From: a virus
Lineage: Duplodnaviria; Heunggongvirae; Uroviricota; Caudoviricetes
Reading direction: 5' to 3' (one strand)
Length of the DNA: 27,945 bases
IMG/VR virus record: IMGVR_UViG_2695420817_000020
Part shown: in pieces, positions 12,174 to 17,107 of the stretch
Layout: every line of letters begins with the position of its first letter
Position numbering within the stretch: position 1 is the first letter of the stretch
Translations under genes and position numbers: made by a program
The notes under the pieces: model-generated
Database searches by the model: none
Told to the model about the DNA's origin: nothing
Seen by the model: the letters and a program-made list of their open reading frames with translations, nothing else

Positions 12174-12344
12174 ATGTTTGTGAAACCTGTTAAAGGGCGG
12201 TCAGTTCCTGACCCTGCCCGCGGCGACCTTTTGCCCGCCGAGGGGCGAAATGTTGATGAGAACAACTACTGGCTGCGCCGTGAAGCAGCGGGTGATATCC
12301 GGCGCGTGAATAAAAAGGTGAATACCGATGACGATAAGCTTTAA
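12174..12344 (+). CDS. Small protein preceding the sheath (Mu gp38-like)
   Basis: 56-aa ORF whose 3' end overlaps the sheath start by 17 nt. Below the ORF-track cutoff; conserved position in Mu-like tails. Confidence 0.45.
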   Translation: MFVKPVKGRSVPDPARGDLLPAEGRNVDENNYWLRREAAGDIRRVNKKVNTDDDKL

Positions 12345-13824
12345 CACCATTCCGTCGAATACGCTGGTTCCGATTTTTTATGCGGAAATGGATAACTCGG
12401 CGGCGAATACTGCACAGGACAGCGGAGCATCGCTGCTGATTGGTCATGCCAATAACGGTGCAGAGATTGTTGCCAACAGTCTGGTGCTGATGCCATCGGC
12501 AGACTATGCACGCCAGATTTGTGGTGCGGGAAGTCAGCTGGCGCGTATGGTCGAGGCTTATCGCCAGACCGACCCGTTTGGTGAACTGTATGTGATTGCC
12601 GTTCCGGAAGCCACGGGCGCGGCGGCAACGGTTACGCTGACGGTGACCGGCGCGGCAACCGAAACCGGCACGGTGAATGTTTATGTGGGACGTACCCGCG
12701 TGCAGGCACCGGTGACCAACGGCGATAACGTCGCGACGATTGCCAGCAGTATCAAAGATGCCATCAATGCCGTTCCGACCCTGCCGTTTACTGCCTCATC
12801 TTCGGCAGGCGTGGTCACACTGACCGCGCGTCATAAGGGGCTTTGCGGGAATGAAATTCCTGTCAGCCTCAATTACTACGGCTTTGGTGGGGGCGAAGTG
12901 CTGCCAGCGGGCGTACAGATTGCCGTGGCGACGGGTACCGCCGGAACGGGCGCTCCTGTTCTCACCGGCGCGGTGGCTGCAATGGCGGATGAGCCGTTTG
13001 ATTATATCGGCCTGCCGTTCAACGACACAGCCTCCGTTAACACGCTGGTGACCGAGATGAACGATACCAGCGGTCGCTGGAGCTATGCGCGTCAGCTGTA
13101 TGGTCATGTGTATACGGCAAAGATCGGCACGCTGTCAGAACTGGTGACCGCAGGTGACCAGTTTAACCAGCAGCACATTACCCTGGCGGGATACGAAAAA
13201 GAGACCCAGACGCCTGCCGACGAGCTGGCGGCAAGCCGTACCGCCCGCGCAGCGGTGTTTATTCGCAACGATCCGGCACGTCCCACGCAGACCGGTGAGC
13301 TGGTGGGTATGCTGCCTGCGCCGAAGGGGAAACGGTTCACGATGACCGAACAACAGACCCTGCTGTCTTATGGCGTGGCAACGGCGTATGTCGAAAGCGG
13401 GGTGCTGCGCATTCAGCGTGATGTCACCACGTACAGGAAAAACGCTTACGGTGTTGCGGATAACAGCTACCTCGACAGCGAGACGCTGCATACCAGCGCG
13501 TATGTGCTGCGCAAACTGAAATCCGTCATTACCAGTAAGTACGGGCGTCACAAGCTTGCCAGCGACGGTACCCGCTTTGGTCCCGGTCAGGCGATTGTCA
13601 CACCGGCGGTGATCAAAGGGGAACTGCTGGCAACCTACCGTCAGCTTGAGCGTGCGGGGATCGTGGAAAACTACGAACTGTTTAAGCAGTACCTGGTTGT
13701 GGAGCGTGATGCCAGCGATCCGAACCGCCTGAACACGCTGTTCCCGCCTGACTATGTTAACCAGTTGCGTGTCTTTGCCGTGGTTAACCAGTTCCGTCTT
13801 CAGTATTCAGAGGAGTCTGCATAA
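12328..13824 (+). CDS. Tail sheath protein (Mu gpL-like)
   Basis: 498 aa, immediately followed by a tube-size protein and chaperone/tape-measure genes. Confidence 0.85.
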   Translation: MTISFNTIPSNTLVPIFYAEMDNSAANTAQDSGASLLIGHANNGAEIVANSLVLMPSADYARQICGAGSQLARMVEAYRQTDPFGELYVIAVPEATGAAATVTLTVTGAATETGTVNVYVGRTRVQAPVTNGDNVATIASSIKDAINAVPTLPFTASSSAGVVTLTARHKGLCGNEIPVSLNYYGFGGGEVLPAGVQIAVATGTAGTGAPVLTGAVAAMADEPFDYIGLPFNDTASVNTLVTEMNDTSGRWSYARQLYGHVYTAKIGTLSELVTAGDQFNQQHITLAGYEKETQTPADELAASRTARAAVFIRNDPARPTQTGELVGMLPAPKGKRFTMTEQQTLLSYGVATAYVESGVLRIQRDVTTYRKNAYGVADNSYLDSETLHTSAYVLRKLKSVITSKYGRHKLASDGTRFGPGQAIVTPAVIKGELLATYRQLERAGIVENYELFKQYLVVERDASDPNRLNTLFPPDYVNQLRVFAVVNQFRLQYSEESA

Positions 13825-14180
13825 TGGCCCGTATCGGGGGAACCTGTTATTTCAAAATTGACGGTCAACAGCTATCGCTGACCGGCGGCATTGAGGTGCC
13901 CATGAACAGGACGGTCAATGATGACATCATCGGCCTGGACGGTTCAGTGGACCGCAAGGAAACTCACCGTGCGCCTTATGTCAAAGGGACTTTCAAGGTG
14001 CCGAAGAATTTTCCGGTGAACAAAATCACCTCGTCTGATGAGATGACTATCACTGCCGAGCTGGCGAACGGTCAGGTCTATGTACTGTCGTCTGCCTGGC
14101 TGCACGGCGAAGCGAACCATAATGCCGAAGAAGGCACGGTTGATCTTGAGTTCCACGGTGAAGAAGGGGATTACCAGTAA
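13824..14180 (+). CDS. Tail tube protein (Mu gpM-like)
   Basis: 118 aa, directly downstream of the sheath with an overlapping start. Confidence 0.8.
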   Translation: MARIGGTCYFKIDGQQLSLTGGIEVPMNRTVNDDIIGLDGSVDRKETHRAPYVKGTFKVPKNFPVNKITSSDEMTITAELANGQVYVLSSAWLHGEANHNAEEGTVDLEFHGEEGDYQ

Positions 14181-14449
14181 TGAAAGAGCTTGAGTTAAAG
14201 AAACCGATTACTGCTCATGGCGAGACACTCTCCGTACTGGAGTTTGATGAGCCCACCGGGAAGGATGTCCGCGAGCTGGGGTATCCCTACCAGATGAATC
14301 AGGATGAGTCAGTCAAACTTCTGGCGCATGTGGTGTCGAAATACATTGTGCGGCTGGCGAAAGTGCCGCAAATCTCTGTCGACCAGATGTCTCCGGCAGA
14401 CCTGAATGCGGCGGCGTGGCTTGTGGCTGGTTTTTTCCTCCAGGCCTGA
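14180..14449 (+). CDS. Tail assembly chaperone (G-like, zero frame)
   Basis: 89 aa between tube and tape measure. Contains the slippery heptamer T TTT TTC near its 3' end. Confidence 0.65.
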   Translation: MKELELKKPITAHGETLSVLEFDEPTGKDVRELGYPYQMNQDESVKLLAHVVSKYIVRLAKVPQISVDQMSPADLNAAAWLVAGFFLQA

Positions 14450-14598
14450 CGGCTGAATACCTCACTGATCGCTTCTTTGACTGCGCCAGCTACTGGCGCA
14501 TTAATCCTTTCGAATTGCTGAATATGCCGATCAGTGAAATTCCCTTACTGGTCAGTCAGGCAAACAGGATAGAGCAGGAGAAACGCACACATGGCTGA
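14416..14598 (+). CDS. Frameshift extension of the tail chaperone (GT-like; reached by -1 frameshift, no independent start expected)
   Basis: The -1 frame is open from the slippery site to 14598 and overlaps the tape-measure start. Confidence 0.5.
   Translation: MACGWFFPPGLTAEYLTDRFFDCASYWRINPFELLNMPISEIPLLVSQANRIEQEKRTHG
14431..14437 (+). other. Programmed -1 ribosomal frameshift slippery site T_TTT_TTC
   Basis: In the zero frame the codons are GGT TTT TTC. The heptamer fits X_XXY_YYZ, and the -1 frame continues open for 56 codons. Confidence 0.55.
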
Positions 14599-16423
14599 AT
14601 TTGAGCTTAAGGCGTTGATCACCGGTGTCGACAGGCTTTCTCCCGCGCTGTCGAAAATGCAAAAGAAAATCCGGGGATTTAAACGCCAGGCGGAAGAAGC
14701 GTCACAGGGTGGGCTGGCGCTTGGGGGCGGACTGGCAGCGGGTCTGACGCTTTCCCTGAAATCTTATGCCGATCAGGAAAACGCCGCCACCGGGCTGAAA
14801 GTCGCCATGATGGATGCGAACGGCGAGGTTGGAAAGAGCTTTCAGGACATCAATAAACTGGCTATTGGCCTGGGTAACCAGCTACCTGGTACAACGGCTG
14901 ATTTCCAGAACATGATGCAGATGCTGGTGCGTCAGGGGATCCCGGCAGAAAACATTCTGGGTGGTGTGGGTAAAGCGACAGCTTATCTTGCGGTACAACT
15001 GAAAAAAACACCGGAAGCGGCTGCTGAGTTTGCTGCAAAGATGCAGGATGCTACCGGAACGGCGTCAGAAGACATGATGGGGCTGTTCGACACTATCCAG
15101 AAGGCGTTTTATCTGGGCGTTGACGATACCAACATGTTGTCCTTCTTCACTAAAACCAGTTCTGTTCTGAAGATGGTGAACAAGGATGGTCTTCAGGCTG
15201 CACAGAGCCTTGCCCCCATCAGCGTCATGATGGATCAGATGGGGATGAACGGGGAGTCGGCAGGTAATGCCCTGCGAAAAGTTATCCAGTCCGGATTAAG
15301 CGTTAAGAAAATCAGGGACGTTAATAAAGTTATGGCCCGCCAGAAACTCGGGGTACAGCTCGATTTTACTGACGGCAAAGGAAGTTTTGGCGGTCTTGAT
15401 AACATGTTCAGGCAACTGGCAAAGCTGCGAAAACTGACCGACGTTAAGCGAACAGGTGTACTTAAGGCAATATTTGGTGATGATGCCGAAACCCTTCAGG
15501 TGGTCAATGCACTAATCGATAAAGGAAAGGATGGCTACGATCAGATCCAGCAGAAGATGAATAAACAGGCCAGCCTGAATAAACGTGTTCAGGCACAGCT
15601 TGGTACGCTGTCCAACCTGTGGGAGGCAATGACAGGGACCGCAACTAACGGCCTTGCGGCTATTGGCGGCGCATTTTCTGGTGACGCTAAAAATATCACA
15701 CAATGGCTGGGGGAGTTGGGGGAGAAATTCACGAAGTTTGCGGATGAAAATCCCCGGGTTATTCGCGGCGTCGTCGGGCTTGCTGCCGGTCTTGCGATTC
15801 TGAAACTGGGATTGATGGGCGTGGGCAGTGCCATCAGTATTGTCAGCAGGATTATGTCGATGACGCCGATTGGCATGATTGCGACGGCGATTGCTCTGGC
15901 TGCGGGATTAATTATCACTAACTGGGATGTTGTCGGACCTTATTTCAAGAAGCTCTGGGAAACCATTGGTCCTTATTTTGAGGCAGGTTGGGAACTTCTG
16001 AAGAAGGTTTTTGCCTGGTCGCCGCTGGGGATGGTGATCAATAACTGGGGACCGGTTGTTAAGTGGTTTCAGGATATGTGGGACAAGCTGAAGCCAATTA
16101 TTGAGTGGTTTACCGACAGTTCCGGTGACACGGTCGATGCCATTAACTCTGCGCAGTGGGGCGCGGGTGCTTATGATGCTTATGGGACGGGAATACCGGC
16201 GCGGGGATACACACCTTATCCGGCGGTGGATCCGGCTCAGTCAAACAACGCCTCCGATGCCACAGGCTCGAATCCCTTCATGATTAACAAAGCTTCTGTG
16301 CCAAAAGTTGATGGTGAGATCAAGGTATCTTTTGTGAATTCGCCTCCGGGTATGCGGGTTATGGAAACGCGATCCAGCGGTTTTGATGTCAGCCATGATG
16401 TTGGCTATACGCGGTTCAGGTAG
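14591..16423 (+). CDS. Tail tape measure protein
   Basis: 610 aa, Ala/Gly-rich with hydrophobic C-terminal segments. Follows the chaperone pair. Confidence 0.85.
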   Translation: MAEFELKALITGVDRLSPALSKMQKKIRGFKRQAEEASQGGLALGGGLAAGLTLSLKSYADQENAATGLKVAMMDANGEVGKSFQDINKLAIGLGNQLPGTTADFQNMMQMLVRQGIPAENILGGVGKATAYLAVQLKKTPEAAAEFAAKMQDATGTASEDMMGLFDTIQKAFYLGVDDTNMLSFFTKTSSVLKMVNKDGLQAAQSLAPISVMMDQMGMNGESAGNALRKVIQSGLSVKKIRDVNKVMARQKLGVQLDFTDGKGSFGGLDNMFRQLAKLRKLTDVKRTGVLKAIFGDDAETLQVVNALIDKGKDGYDQIQQKMNKQASLNKRVQAQLGTLSNLWEAMTGTATNGLAAIGGAFSGDAKNITQWLGELGEKFTKFADENPRVIRGVVGLAAGLAILKLGLMGVGSAISIVSRIMSMTPIGMIATAIALAAGLIITNWDVVGPYFKKLWETIGPYFEAGWELLKKVFAWSPLGMVINNWGPVVKWFQDMWDKLKPIIEWFTDSSGDTVDAINSAQWGAGAYDAYGTGIPARGYTPYPAVDPAQSNNASDATGSNPFMINKASVPKVDGEIKVSFVNSPPGMRVMETRSSGFDVSHDVGYTRFR

Positions 16424-16522
16424 TGTACAAAATGATTAATGTGTTTTTGTCTGGCATAATTTGGGTTTTCAGCTTTAAGTAGTTAATATAATCATTCCTT
16501 ACAAATGATTGAAGGGATGATT

Positions 16523-17017
16523 ATGCGTATCTTTGTTTTTTTTATATCTGCACTTTTATCTTTTAACTTGGCTGCGGAAGAGTGTAAGTTCAGCTTTAAT
16601 GAGTCAGAATTAATCTCTTCTATAGGTATTGCACCAGTTAAGCAAGAGATAATAAAGGATGAAGGAATAACTAAGCGGCAATATGAATTCAGAAGAGAAT
16701 TATCTTCTGAAGAAATGCTTAGTGATGACGCTGATGAAAAATATGAGCCGCAGTTTTATATATCTGTTTATAATCCATCATGCCCACAAAAGGTTATTGT
16801 TTGGTTTTTCAAAGACAATAAAAACACAATGGATTTAAGTAATGAGGTCCTTGCTGGTAGAGCGTTCAAATATTTAACTGGTGTTAATGAAAGTATTTTT
16901 GAAAATAAAATGAAAAAGTTTTTAAAGGTACAGTCATTTGAATCTTTTGATGAAAGGACAGATTCTAAATTTATAAAGAGTGGTGATATTTATTCCATTG
17001 ATGTTCAACTCAGATAG
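16523..17017 (+). CDS. Hypothetical secreted/periplasmic protein (moron) with N-terminal signal peptide
   Basis: AAGGGA RBS before ATG 16523. N-terminus MRIFVFFISALLSFNLAAEE is signal-peptide-like. Codon usage strongly A+T-rich, unlike the flanking tail genes. The tracked ORF starts at 16505. Confidence 0.6.
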   Translation: MRIFVFFISALLSFNLAAEECKFSFNESELISSIGIAPVKQEIIKDEGITKRQYEFRRELSSEEMLSDDADEKYEPQFYISVYNPSCPQKVIVWFFKDNKNTMDLSNEVLAGRAFKYLTGVNESIFENKMKKFLKVQSFESFDERTDSKFIKSGDIYSIDVQLR

Positions 17018-17036
17018 TAATTAAAAATATTAGGTT

Positions 17037-17092
17037 CCCGCCACATCTTCTGCGATGTAAATAACTGACAAAGCAGATTTGGCGGGTTTTTT
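17037..17092 (+). terminator. Imperfect long hairpin plus T6; putative terminator of the moron
   Basis: CCCGCC...(loop)...GGCGGG with internal ATCT/GCAGAT pairing, followed by TTTTTT at 17087-17092. Confidence 0.4.
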
Positions 17093-17107
17093 GTATCCGG
17101 AGTTTAT

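Follow-up and report, generated by a model that had tools for sequence, protein, structure and literature searches.

The window, by which we mean the whole analyzed stretch of 27,945 nucleotides, is an SfV-like E. coli prophage (98.6% nucleotide identity to SfV) with a Mu-like contractile-tail module. Its tail genes are arranged in the order sheath, tube, chaperone, tape measure, gp43-like and gp44-like, and the features relevant here are collected in Table 1. We class the module as a Mu-like contractile tail because it has a tail sheath gene, for which the SfV record carries the note 'similar to phage Mu GpL'. The tube stop and the chaperone ATG overlap by 1 nt (TAATG), and downstream of the chaperone the Shine-Dalgarno of the tape-measure gene is spaced 10 nt from its ATG.

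Table 1. Tail genes of the window and the elements of the proposed recoding site
Feature	Position	Strand	Matches and remarks
Tail sheath gene (498 aa)	12328..13824	+	PF04984, PF17482, PF17481; phrog_165 E=3e-231
Tail tube gene (118 aa)	13824..14180	+	PF10618 Tail_tube E=3e-33; phrog_185
Tail assembly chaperone, short zero-frame product (89 aa)	14180..14449	+	PF10109 Phage_TAC_7
Slippery heptamer T TTT TTC, proposed tandem -1 slip site, two tRNA-Phe	14431..14437	+	
-1 frame extension, 53 sense codons + TGA	14437..14598	+	phrog_32181 E=4e-40
AGGAG Shine-Dalgarno of the tape-measure gene	14576..14580	+	read from the sequence; inside the -1 extension
Tail tape measure gene (610 aa)	14591..16423	+	PF10145 E=1e-26; phrog_28, phrog_17727

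The chaperone matches PF10109 with an E-value of 8.8e-16 and 58.2 bits (cutoff 25), over profile positions 2-78 of 79. The family description reads 'Phage tail assembly chaperone proteins, E, or 41 or 14', which is to say the family of P2 gpE and of Mu gp41, the latter being the 41 of the description. The SfV counterpart, orf13, has 98.6% nucleotide identity to the chaperone of the window. The protein ends in ...LVAGFFLQA*, with GGT (14429), TTT (14432), TTC (14435), CTC, CAG, GCC and TGA (14447) as its last codons, such that T TTT TTC stands in the X XXY YYZ register and three sense codons separate it from the stop.

The first-pass annotation of this DNA had noticed the heptamer in the zero-frame register (GGT TTT TTC), four codons before the chaperone stop, and both observations hold: TTC is the fourth codon before the TGA. 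The -1 frame is free of stops across 14308 to 14598. Counted from 14431, it runs for 56 codons including the stop (168 nt), the same number as reported before, made up of two Phe codons read a second time, 53 new sense codons and the TGA at 14596-14598. The end of this frame had been described as overlapping the tape-measure start, and indeed the stop and the ATG at 14591 share 8 nt (ATGGCTGA). Joining 14180-14437 to 14437-14598 gives a predicted fusion of 139 aa, in agreement with the roughly 140 aa proposed earlier. The junction would read ...WLVAGFFPPGLTAEY..., with AAAWLVAGFF on the chaperone side followed by PPGLTAEYLTDR.

With the tube gene before it and the tape-measure gene after it, the two-frame chaperone has the position expected for the G/GT type. 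Xu, Hendrix & Duda are said to have described, in 2004, a conserved tail-assembly-chaperone frameshift of this type. The type is further characterized by two proteins that share an N-terminus, come in a fixed ratio and are both required for building the tail. The frame one base forward, which would be entered by a -2 or +1 shift, has many stops in the window. With the conserved extension in the -1 frame and the +1/-2 frame filled with stops, we do not assign the locus to the -2 shift of the Mu type.

What would the extension look like as a protein? An AlphaFold model of the fusion has a pLDDT of 91.6 and a pTM of 0.82, and it presents the extension as a helical unit (H92-105, H110-114 and H118-138). 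Among viral structures, the full-length fusion model is best matched by tape-measure or tail assembly chaperones; first among them is a 137-aa phage 'tape measure chaperone', with 125 aligned columns and E=6e-5. Neither a sequence search nor a fold search of solved structures reported any relative, and the extension has no match in Pfam or NCBIfam. The pairwise BLASTP alignment to P2 is colinear across the junction and not significant (E=0.64). An hhalign comparison of the extension with P2 E' is not significant either (P=0.0075, probability 5%).

Conservation of the heptamer and of the -1 frame

How often would such a site appear by chance? The ORFs of the window have 27 in-register X XXY YYZ heptamers per 8409 codons, or about 0.3 expected for an ORF of 89 codons. 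Just one of the 27, the one in the chaperone, adjoins a stop and gives access to a -1 frame, 50 codons or longer, that ends at the start of the next gene; two others open -1 frames of 45-56 codons, both in the middle of a gene. What places the chaperone site above chance is the comparative evidence, not the single sequence.

The first-pass annotation had made conservation of the heptamer in homologous prophages a test of its reading, and 28 of the 29 distinct relatives examined keep it. We find T TTT TTY/G at the same codon in 28 loci, in which chaperone identity ranges from 98% down to about 34%. They take in betaproteobacteria and Pseudomonas, and include Derxia, Burkholderia phage BgVeeders33, a Pseudomonas fluorescens tail cluster and Stutzerimonas phage PG1, as well as SfIV, phiP27, ST64B and YeP1. 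The heptamer of PG1 is exactly that of P2. The heptamer is not universal, because Paraburkholderia phage IPK (an UNVERIFIED record) is without it: IPK has GGC TTC TTC followed by stops in the -1 frame, with the extension still in the -1 frame.

Phe-Phe is conserved at the protein level, and the residue before it varies (G, R, N, S or P). The codon for that residue is GGT, CGT, AAT, AGT or CCT, so that its third base is a T in 28 of 28 loci. The first Phe codon is likewise TTT in all 28, while Phe elsewhere in these genes is encoded by 15 TTT to 20 TTC (43% TTT), and the conserved Ala adjoining the site uses all four of its codons. A DNA alignment of 19 sequences, whose mean column identity is 60%, has a single contiguous block without any variation, and this is the T6 run. 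With the third-base T and the TTT fixed across changing residues, we conclude that the constraint at the site is on nucleotides and not on amino acids. The chaperone heptamer illustrates cleanly how a recoding signal can constrain synonymous sites.

The zero-frame tail past the site is variable in sequence, and also in length, with the stop 4, 9, 10, 11, 15, 16 or 22 codons past the slip codon. The -1 extension measures 50-63 aa among the relatives and keeps the motif YFDCAxYWRINPLELL..QANRI. Pairwise substitutions by -1-frame codon position number 717/438/1374, and with this excess at third positions the extension evolves as coding sequence. The 8-nt overlap between the -1 stop and the tape-measure ATG is present in 17 of 24 relatives.

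Two sets of proteins were discarded in the course of this comparison. The full-length metagenome 'fusion' proteins P0001-P0007 have frame changes scattered over different positions, and we regard them as assembly noise and not as evidence. P0129, a candidate for a protein that crosses the junction, comes from a 208-nt fragment and is simply an upstream reading of the -1 frame.

Probable ribosomal slippage and its alternatives

We consider it very probable, from the sequence and its relatives, that the tail assembly chaperone gene of this SfV-like prophage uses a programmed -1 ribosomal frameshift. Most ribosomes would translate 14180-14449 and release the 89-aa chaperone. In a small fraction of them, with one tRNA-Phe in the P site (UUU, 14432-34) and another in the A site (UUC, 14435-37), both tRNAs would slip one base back and re-pair with UUU UUU (14431-36). 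Translation would then continue for 53 further codons in the -1 frame and terminate at the TGA at 14596-98. The resulting long product, of 139 aa, would share its N-terminal 86 residues with the short one and carry a new helical C-terminal domain.

The same 139-aa protein could be produced by the polymerase. If RNA polymerase adds one U at the T6/T7 run, normal translation of that mRNA gives exactly G-F-F-P-P-G-L..., and the two proteins are indistinguishable. In favour of this, the site consists of one repeated base, and we found no ribosomal stimulator (see below). Genomic T8 and T5 variants among the relatives, in some of which the fusion is hard-wired, also show that the run readily gains or loses bases in the DNA; a +G lineage of S. 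flexneri would likewise make the fusion only. Slippage of this kind is also a possible cause, according to Sharma et al., of the under-representation of UUUUUUU in all three E. coli frames. On the other hand, the window and 22 of the 28 loci have a run of only six T, and no two-frame locus has more than T7. Documented bacterial sites of transcriptional slippage are runs of about nine or more A/T, and because the run here is T6-T7 it falls short of such a homopolymer. Moreover, the run begins at codon position 3 in 28 of 28 loci despite differing flanks; its phase counts for the ribosomal model, because the ribosome requires that phase and the polymerase does not, with the point weakened by shared ancestry. 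Finally, for the homologous site of P2 the annotation is of a translational frameshift, and the title of the primary paper says the same. We thus regard slippage by the polymerase as the source of the long product as quite unlikely.

A second alternative is that the extension is a separate gene of 53-60 aa, expressed either from its own start or by termination-reinitiation at the chaperone stop. The window does have a GTG in the -1 frame at 14416, 15 nt before the heptamer, and it is the only upstream GTG. The extension has been called as a CDS of its own in ON470584 and in one RefSeq genome, there is a PHROG family of such calls (phrog_32181), and phage IPK offers no way into the extension from the usual site. 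But GTG 14416 is not preceded by a Shine-Dalgarno, as the starts of the chaperone and the tape measure are, and in 19 of the 28 loci the -1 frame ahead of the conserved motif is devoid of ATG, GTG and TTG. Nor does reinitiation fit phages of the ST64B, SfIV and phiP27 types, in which the chaperone stop comes after the start of the motif and conserved residues would be lost. A separate gene also leaves the invariance of the T run at synonymous sites unexplained, and we find this arrangement highly improbable.

Last, that the heptamer just encodes Gly-Phe-Phe and the -1 frame is a non-functional spacer is a reading that in-register heptamers, being fairly common at the frequency given above, and the conservation of Phe-Phe as protein would allow, but it is effectively refuted by the substitution bias and the synonymous-site invariance, a 'spacer' that moreover keeps its length and its peptide motif and is predicted to fold confidently.

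Returning to the programmed ribosomal frameshift, how strong is the site? By the reporter values of the PMC4066793 supplement, U_UUU_UUC is shift-prone in E. coli, at 0.121% when unstimulated and 7.6% when the IS3 pseudoknot is present, and P2's UUUUUUG gives 0.118% unstimulated and 0.77% stimulated. The T TTT TTC heptamer is intrinsically weak, at about 0.1% in a stimulator-free reporter. Among the T_TTT_TTC entries listed for Sharma et al. 2014 are yegX, ybcH and yddA, and no prophage cluster listed there is this chaperone.

A stimulatory RNA structure downstream was one of the things that the first-pass annotation had proposed to look for, and here the search brought up no conserved structure at canonical spacing. 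We found no Shine-Dalgarno-like element upstream of the heptamer and no hairpin 5-9 nt downstream of it. When the 63-103 nt downstream were folded for the window and four relatives, the z-scores were weak or not conserved. The sole hairpin reported by RNAalifold for 12 relatives begins 44 nt downstream, with a positive (that is, unfavourable) covariation term. This distal hairpin is a recurrent one of 8 bp, at 14482-14500 in the window; by pair counting, 76% of the cells in its stem are paired, with modest covariation, and the stem sits in the conserved C-A-x-Y-W-R codons. We rejected it as a canonical stimulator.

Because the heptamer is weak and has no canonical stimulator 5-9 nt downstream, we also considered whether the required level of long product might be reached unconventionally, with the T run perhaps doubling as a mutational switch. 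We would give this idea rather low odds. Candidates for such a boost would be a contribution of RNA-polymerase slippage at the T run, the recurrent 8-bp hairpin, acting from its position 44 nt downstream, and the conserved nascent peptide ...WLVAGFF. If the T run were a mutational switch, its T8/T5 variants could act within prophage populations to switch the making of tails off or on.

Precedents and annotation

The first-pass annotation had likened the site to the conserved chaperone frameshift described across tailed phages, Mu-like tails included. At the sequence level the comparison is borne out on every point, but the closest precedent is E/E+E' of P2 and not Mu. The chaperone short product is the equivalent of lambda gpG and P2 gpE, and the -1 extension would be the equivalent of the lambda T and P2 E' segments.

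With P2, where gpE and gpE+E' are encoded in the FETUD tail operon, the window shares the PF10109 chaperone family, a contractile tail and a chaperone placed between tube and tape measure. The P2 site, GGT TTT TTG, corresponds to GGT TTT TTC in the window, at the equivalent ...GF position near the C-terminus, and the products are of similar size (91/142 aa in P2 and 89/139 aa here). Even the overlap between the -1 stop and the tape-measure ATG, at 8 nt, is identical in P2 E'/T. For P2, PMC3091744 reports no stimulatory structure downstream of the site, just as none was found for the window. The differences are that the A-site codon is Leu UUG in P2 and Phe UUC or UUU in the lineage of the window, that the rest of the tail module is Mu-like and not P2-like, and that the P2 frameshift is annotated and described as translational, whereas the predicted one of the window is unannotated.

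Lambda gpG/gpGT offers the same arrangement of a two-frame chaperone directly upstream of the tape measure, and there too the ribosome shifts by -1 at an X XXY YYZ heptamer close to where the short ORF ends, as we propose for the window. The lambda tail, however, is non-contractile, and its chaperone belongs to an unrelated sequence family. The lambda T segment is also longer than the extension of the window. In the same reporter, the lambda heptamer G GGA AAG gives 0.28% unstimulated versus 0.12% for that of the window. According to PMC5009743, the proposed roles in lambda are that the shared domain binds the tape measure and the tail tube subunit is bound by the extension; about 1 in 30 is the long product, and neither protein is in the virion.

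With Mu the tail module is homologous, with equivalents of the sheath L, the tube M, gp43 and gp44. The Mu chaperone is given a -2 shift in two papers that cite Xu et al. 2004 (PMC2628397 and PMC5009743). Mu gp41, of 145 aa, has no in-register X XXY YYZ heptamer, in contrast to the classical -1 heptamer of the window. The tail of the window is, in short, Mu-like in structure and P2-like in its recoding.

By analogy with lambda G/GT and P2 E/E+E', the shared N-terminal domain would coat the 610-aa tape-measure protein, and the rare C-terminal domain would recruit the tube protein and start its polymerization. The recoding site would set a fixed, low ratio of long to short product, and the finished virion would be expected to have neither form of the chaperone. 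What the sequences themselves show is the anatomy, the family of the N-terminal domain, the conservation of the site at the nucleotide level, the coding evolution of the -1 ORF and its want of a start of its own in most relatives; the occurrence of slippage, its efficiency and the binding partners we infer.

The chaperone frameshift is a known and ordinary mechanism, and what is added here is a further probable instance, in this prophage, that none of the database records examined marks. The finding leaves the understanding of the mechanism unchanged and is mainly a point of annotation. None of the GenBank/RefSeq records examined annotates slippage or has a joined CDS for the chaperone; the 89-aa product, named 'phage tail assembly protein' by PGAP, is the sole one listed, and before the tape measure the records have either a 141-nt 'gap' or a spurious 'hypothetical protein'. 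We found no paper on a frameshift in SfV, SfI, SfII, ST64B or phiP27. Some fragments of the extension are named 'phage tail assembly protein, partial', and a PGAP slippage reference behind that name was considered and dropped, as no joined CDS was found; genomic in-frame fusions are the likely reference for these fragments.

The comparison extends the P2-type T TTT TTN site over the Mu-like tail lineage in gamma- and betaproteobacteria, including the tail-only Pseudomonas cluster. Thousands of records would be put right if the 139-aa slippage product were annotated in them, and PHROG 32181 could receive a new label. The chaperone is present in 1086 of 5426 complete E. coli genomes, about one in five, and the Shigella serotype-converting phages SfV, SfI and SfII also carry it.

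Proposed slip site in the chaperone gene

The window is an SfV-like prophage; its chaperone stretch shares 98.6% identity with orf11-orf14 of Shigella phage SfV and occurs in 1086 of the 5426 complete genomes of E. coli. The tail module is of the Mu-like contractile type, in the order sheath (PF04984), tube (PF10618), chaperone, tape measure (PF10145), Mu gp43-like and Mu gp44-like, and the chaperone matches PF10109 (Phage_TAC_7, 58.2 bits vs. a cutoff of 25).

The codon phase at the site, read from the sequence, is GGT (14429) TTT (14432) TTC (14435) CTC CAG GCC TGA (14447), which therefore places T TTT TTC in the X XXY YYZ register. The tape measure starts with the ATG at 14591, which gives an 8-nt overlap with the end of the -1 ORF (ATGGCTGA). 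The first-pass annotation had claimed this heptamer register near the chaperone stop, a -1 frame open for 56 codons that ends overlapping the tape-measure start, and a fusion of roughly 140 aa. All of this is borne out, with the 56 codons counted from 14431 and a predicted fusion of 139 aa.

Features discussed in the text, in window coordinates
Feature	Position	Strand	Description
Tail assembly chaperone, short product	14180-14449	+	89 aa, C-terminus ...LVAGFFLQA*
Slippery heptamer T TTT TTC	14431-14437	+	X XXY YYZ register, as tandem -1 slippage needs
-1 extension	14437-14598		53 sense codons (PPGLTAEYLTDRFFDCASYWRINPFELLNMPISEIPLLVSQANRIEQEKRTHG), then TGA 14596-14598
8-bp stem	14482-14500		UGCGCCAG-CUA-CUGGCGCA, starting 44 nt downstream of the heptamer
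170-aa ORF	16505-17017		between tape-measure and Mu gp43-like genes; phrog_8976 (unknown function)
Low-GC island	~16350-17100		30-36% GC vs. ~52% in flanks

The 35 non-overlapping ORFs of the window hold 27 in-register X XXY YYZ heptamers in 8409 codons (~0.3 per 89 codons), among which the chaperone site is the only one both to adjoin a stop and to open a -1 frame that runs for 50 codons or more, up to the next gene. Judged from this single sequence, the site exceeds chance only moderately; the case for a frameshift rests on comparison with relatives.

Conservation among relatives, and exceptions

We gathered 23 loci from a one-genome-per-species collection and nine phage loci. T TTT TTC, T TTT TTT or T TTT TTG occupies the same chaperone codon in 28 distinct loci, including Derxia gummosa, Burkholderia phage BgVeeders33, a Pseudomonas fluorescens tail cluster and Stutzerimonas phage PG1, with chaperone identity to the window from 98% down to ~34%. 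The proposal had been staked on the heptamer being conserved in homologous prophages, and this is what we find. In a DNA alignment of 19 sequences (60% mean column identity), the six T's are the sole contiguous invariant block. The codon preceding Phe-Phe encodes Gly, Arg, Asn, Ser or Pro, always with T as third base (28/28), and the following codon is TTT in 28/28 loci, while Phe elsewhere in the same genes is TTT 15 times and TTC 20 times. A conserved Ala beside the site uses all four codons. The constraint at the site acts on nucleotides.

Past the site, the zero-frame tail runs for 4 to 22 codons and is unconserved. The -1 extension is 50-63 aa long with a conserved motif, YFDCAxYWRINPLELL...QANRI, and in 17 of 24 loci an 8-nt overlap links its stop to the tape-measure ATG. 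From the zero-frame stop to the tape-measure ATG, pairwise substitutions per -1-frame codon position are 717/438/1374, which reads as a coding signature; the chaperone body, as control, gives 916/527/2826.

Pseudomonas phage DVM-2008 of P. fluorescens Q8r1-96 retains AGT TTT TTC (positions 1746-1752 of its locus), with a 54-aa -1-frame extension ending at the tape-measure start. PMC2647930 describes the counterpart in strain Pf-5 as a tail-plus-lysis cluster, and together these suggest that the chaperone frameshift is retained in a possibly tailocin-like element.

The one relative without the heptamer is Paraburkholderia phage IPK (L039, PV588664.1, UNVERIFIED; ~1720-1993), which has GGC TTC TTC and then two -1-frame stops; its homologue of the extension nevertheless remains in the -1 frame and ends just before the tape-measure ATG. 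Either IPK reaches the extension by another route, or the record has errors.

Some genomes of relatives with seven T's (T7) at the site carry in-frame fusions of chaperone and extension at the DNA level. As an example, Pantoea agglomerans GCA_026236625.1 (L040, 1452-1459) has T8 for T7, which yields the trans-frame protein exactly as predicted (P0194, 138 aa). T5 for T7 in loci L044-L046 (1452-1456) gives a fusion one Phe shorter (P0189), and in two of the T5 contigs other tail genes are broken as well. These run variants reflect either true mutation or sequencing error in the homopolymer. In a very widespread phiP27/SfIV-type lineage of Shigella flexneri, found on at least 661 contigs (L041-L043, e.g. 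LR861788.1 1805515-1808343; gene 1201-1629), T7 is kept, and one additional G (ccggaaa to ccgggaaa), located 34 nt past the T-run, fuses the frames. The gene then encodes a constitutive fusion of 142 aa (P0193) and no short product; this lineage probably has a defective tail module. The genomic fusions are indels, not annotated slippage, and are no evidence for recoding; what they do show is a viable ORF for the fused polypeptide and an indel-prone T-run.

Known systems, alternatives and stimulators

The closest precedent is P2, whose chaperone has its Pfam family in common with that of the window. Its slip site, GGT TTT TTG, is at the equivalent ...GF position, its products are of 91 (E) and 142 aa (E+E'), its record annotates the -1 frameshift, and the E' stop overlaps the T start by 8 nt, as in the window. 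The P2 and window fusion proteins align colinearly by BLASTP across the junction, the similarity of the extension to E' being not significant. PMC3091744, which cites Xu et al. 2004 and Christie et al. 2002, places the P2 shift at TTTTTTG, without downstream structure. We consider it very probable that the window has a programmed -1 frameshift of the kind well known from tail chaperones, which would be homologous in position to P2 E/E+E'. The mechanism is of a known kind, and its occurrence in the SfV-like prophage family would be new.

The first-pass annotation had also likened the site to a conserved chaperone frameshift that includes Mu-like tails. The kind of recoding is supported and the tail is Mu-like, but Mu itself is reported by two papers to use a -2 shift (PMC2628397 and PMC5009743), and Mu gp41, unlike the window chaperone, has no in-register heptamer; therefore the tail is Mu-like and the recoding P2-like. 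In lambda, the G sequence, alone as gpG or as part of gpGT, binds the tape measure, and the T domain binds the tube subunit, with a ratio of ~30:1 (PMC5009743). By analogy, the window chaperone would bind its tape measure, and the extension would recruit the tube.

Transcriptional slippage, with RNA polymerase adding one U on the T-run, would yield an identical protein. However, at T6-T7 the run is short, it keeps a fixed codon phase, and the homologous P2 site is described as translational; we regard slippage of this type as improbable. Even less credible is a separate small gene in the -1 frame: the window has a single candidate start, GTG 14416, but it is without the Shine-Dalgarno sequence that the chaperone and tape-measure starts have, and 19 of 28 loci have no ATG, GTG or TTG in that frame before the conserved motif. 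Independent expression of the -1 ORF thus seems unlikely. Termination-reinitiation fails as a general mechanism, because in the ST64B, SfIV and phiP27 types the conserved motif has already begun where the zero-frame stop falls. That the layout of the site is due to chance is hardly believable.

In the systematic measurements of Sharma et al. in E. coli (PMC4066793), -1 frameshifting without a stimulator and with the IS3 pseudoknot is, respectively, 0.121% and 7.6% for UUUUUUC, 0.33% and 10.2% for UUUUUUU, 0.118% and 0.77% for UUUUUUG (the P2 motif), and 0.277% and 43% for GGGAAAG (the lambda motif); they rank H_HH.U_UU.Y among the most efficient motifs in that host. By these figures, the window site should be at least as shift-prone as the proven site of P2. 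The heptamer is intrinsically weak, which fits the need for a small fraction of long product.

A stimulatory downstream RNA structure had been proposed as something to look for. Folding the window and its relatives (RNAalifold) found no conserved hairpin 5-9 nt downstream, and no Shine-Dalgarno-like element was found upstream of the heptamer. The 8-bp stem in the table is found again in many relatives, with 76% of cells paired and some double changes. We reject it as a canonical stimulator, since it is too far downstream, lies within codons of the conserved C-A-S-Y-W-R motif, and has no covariation support by RNAalifold.

Predicted structure and database annotation

A confident AlphaFold2 model of the fusion, built on a 29-row alignment (pLDDT 91.6, pTM 0.82), has an N-terminal domain of a beta-hairpin plus helices, a lower-confidence linker past the shift site, and a three-helix extension. 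Among viral models, Foldseek ranks tape-measure or tail assembly chaperones highest, with one from Burkholderia phage Mica at the top (137 aa, 125 columns, E=6e-5). We found no matching solved structure for the fusion, and no Pfam or NCBIfam family for the extension.

The records of SfV (U82619), SfI, SfII, SfIV, phiP27, ST64B, AH07, YeP1, BgVeeders33, DVM-2008, PG1 and RefSeq E. coli genomes have the short protein only, with no joined CDS. A few records annotate the -1 ORF as a free-standing 'hypothetical protein', and phrog_32181 is made up of such calls. No record examined annotates the frameshift in SfV-like prophages, and, the tables of Xu et al. 2004 aside, we found no paper describing it. 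The finding carries little intrinsic surprise and is useful mainly as an annotation correction for a very common prophage family.

Fragments of 28-50 aa at contig edges in Salmonella and Shigella, dozens in number (protein entries P0133, P0136, P0138 and their clusters), cover the extension only and carry the NCBI name 'phage tail assembly protein, partial'; we found no slippage annotation. Presumably the NCBI pipeline aligns them to some full-length extension-containing reference, probably the genomic in-frame fusions.

Finally, the 170-aa ORF has a signal-peptide-like N-terminus (MRIFVFFISALLSFNLAAEEC) and lies within the low-GC island; it thus resembles a 'moron' that entered the tail operon by horizontal transfer.
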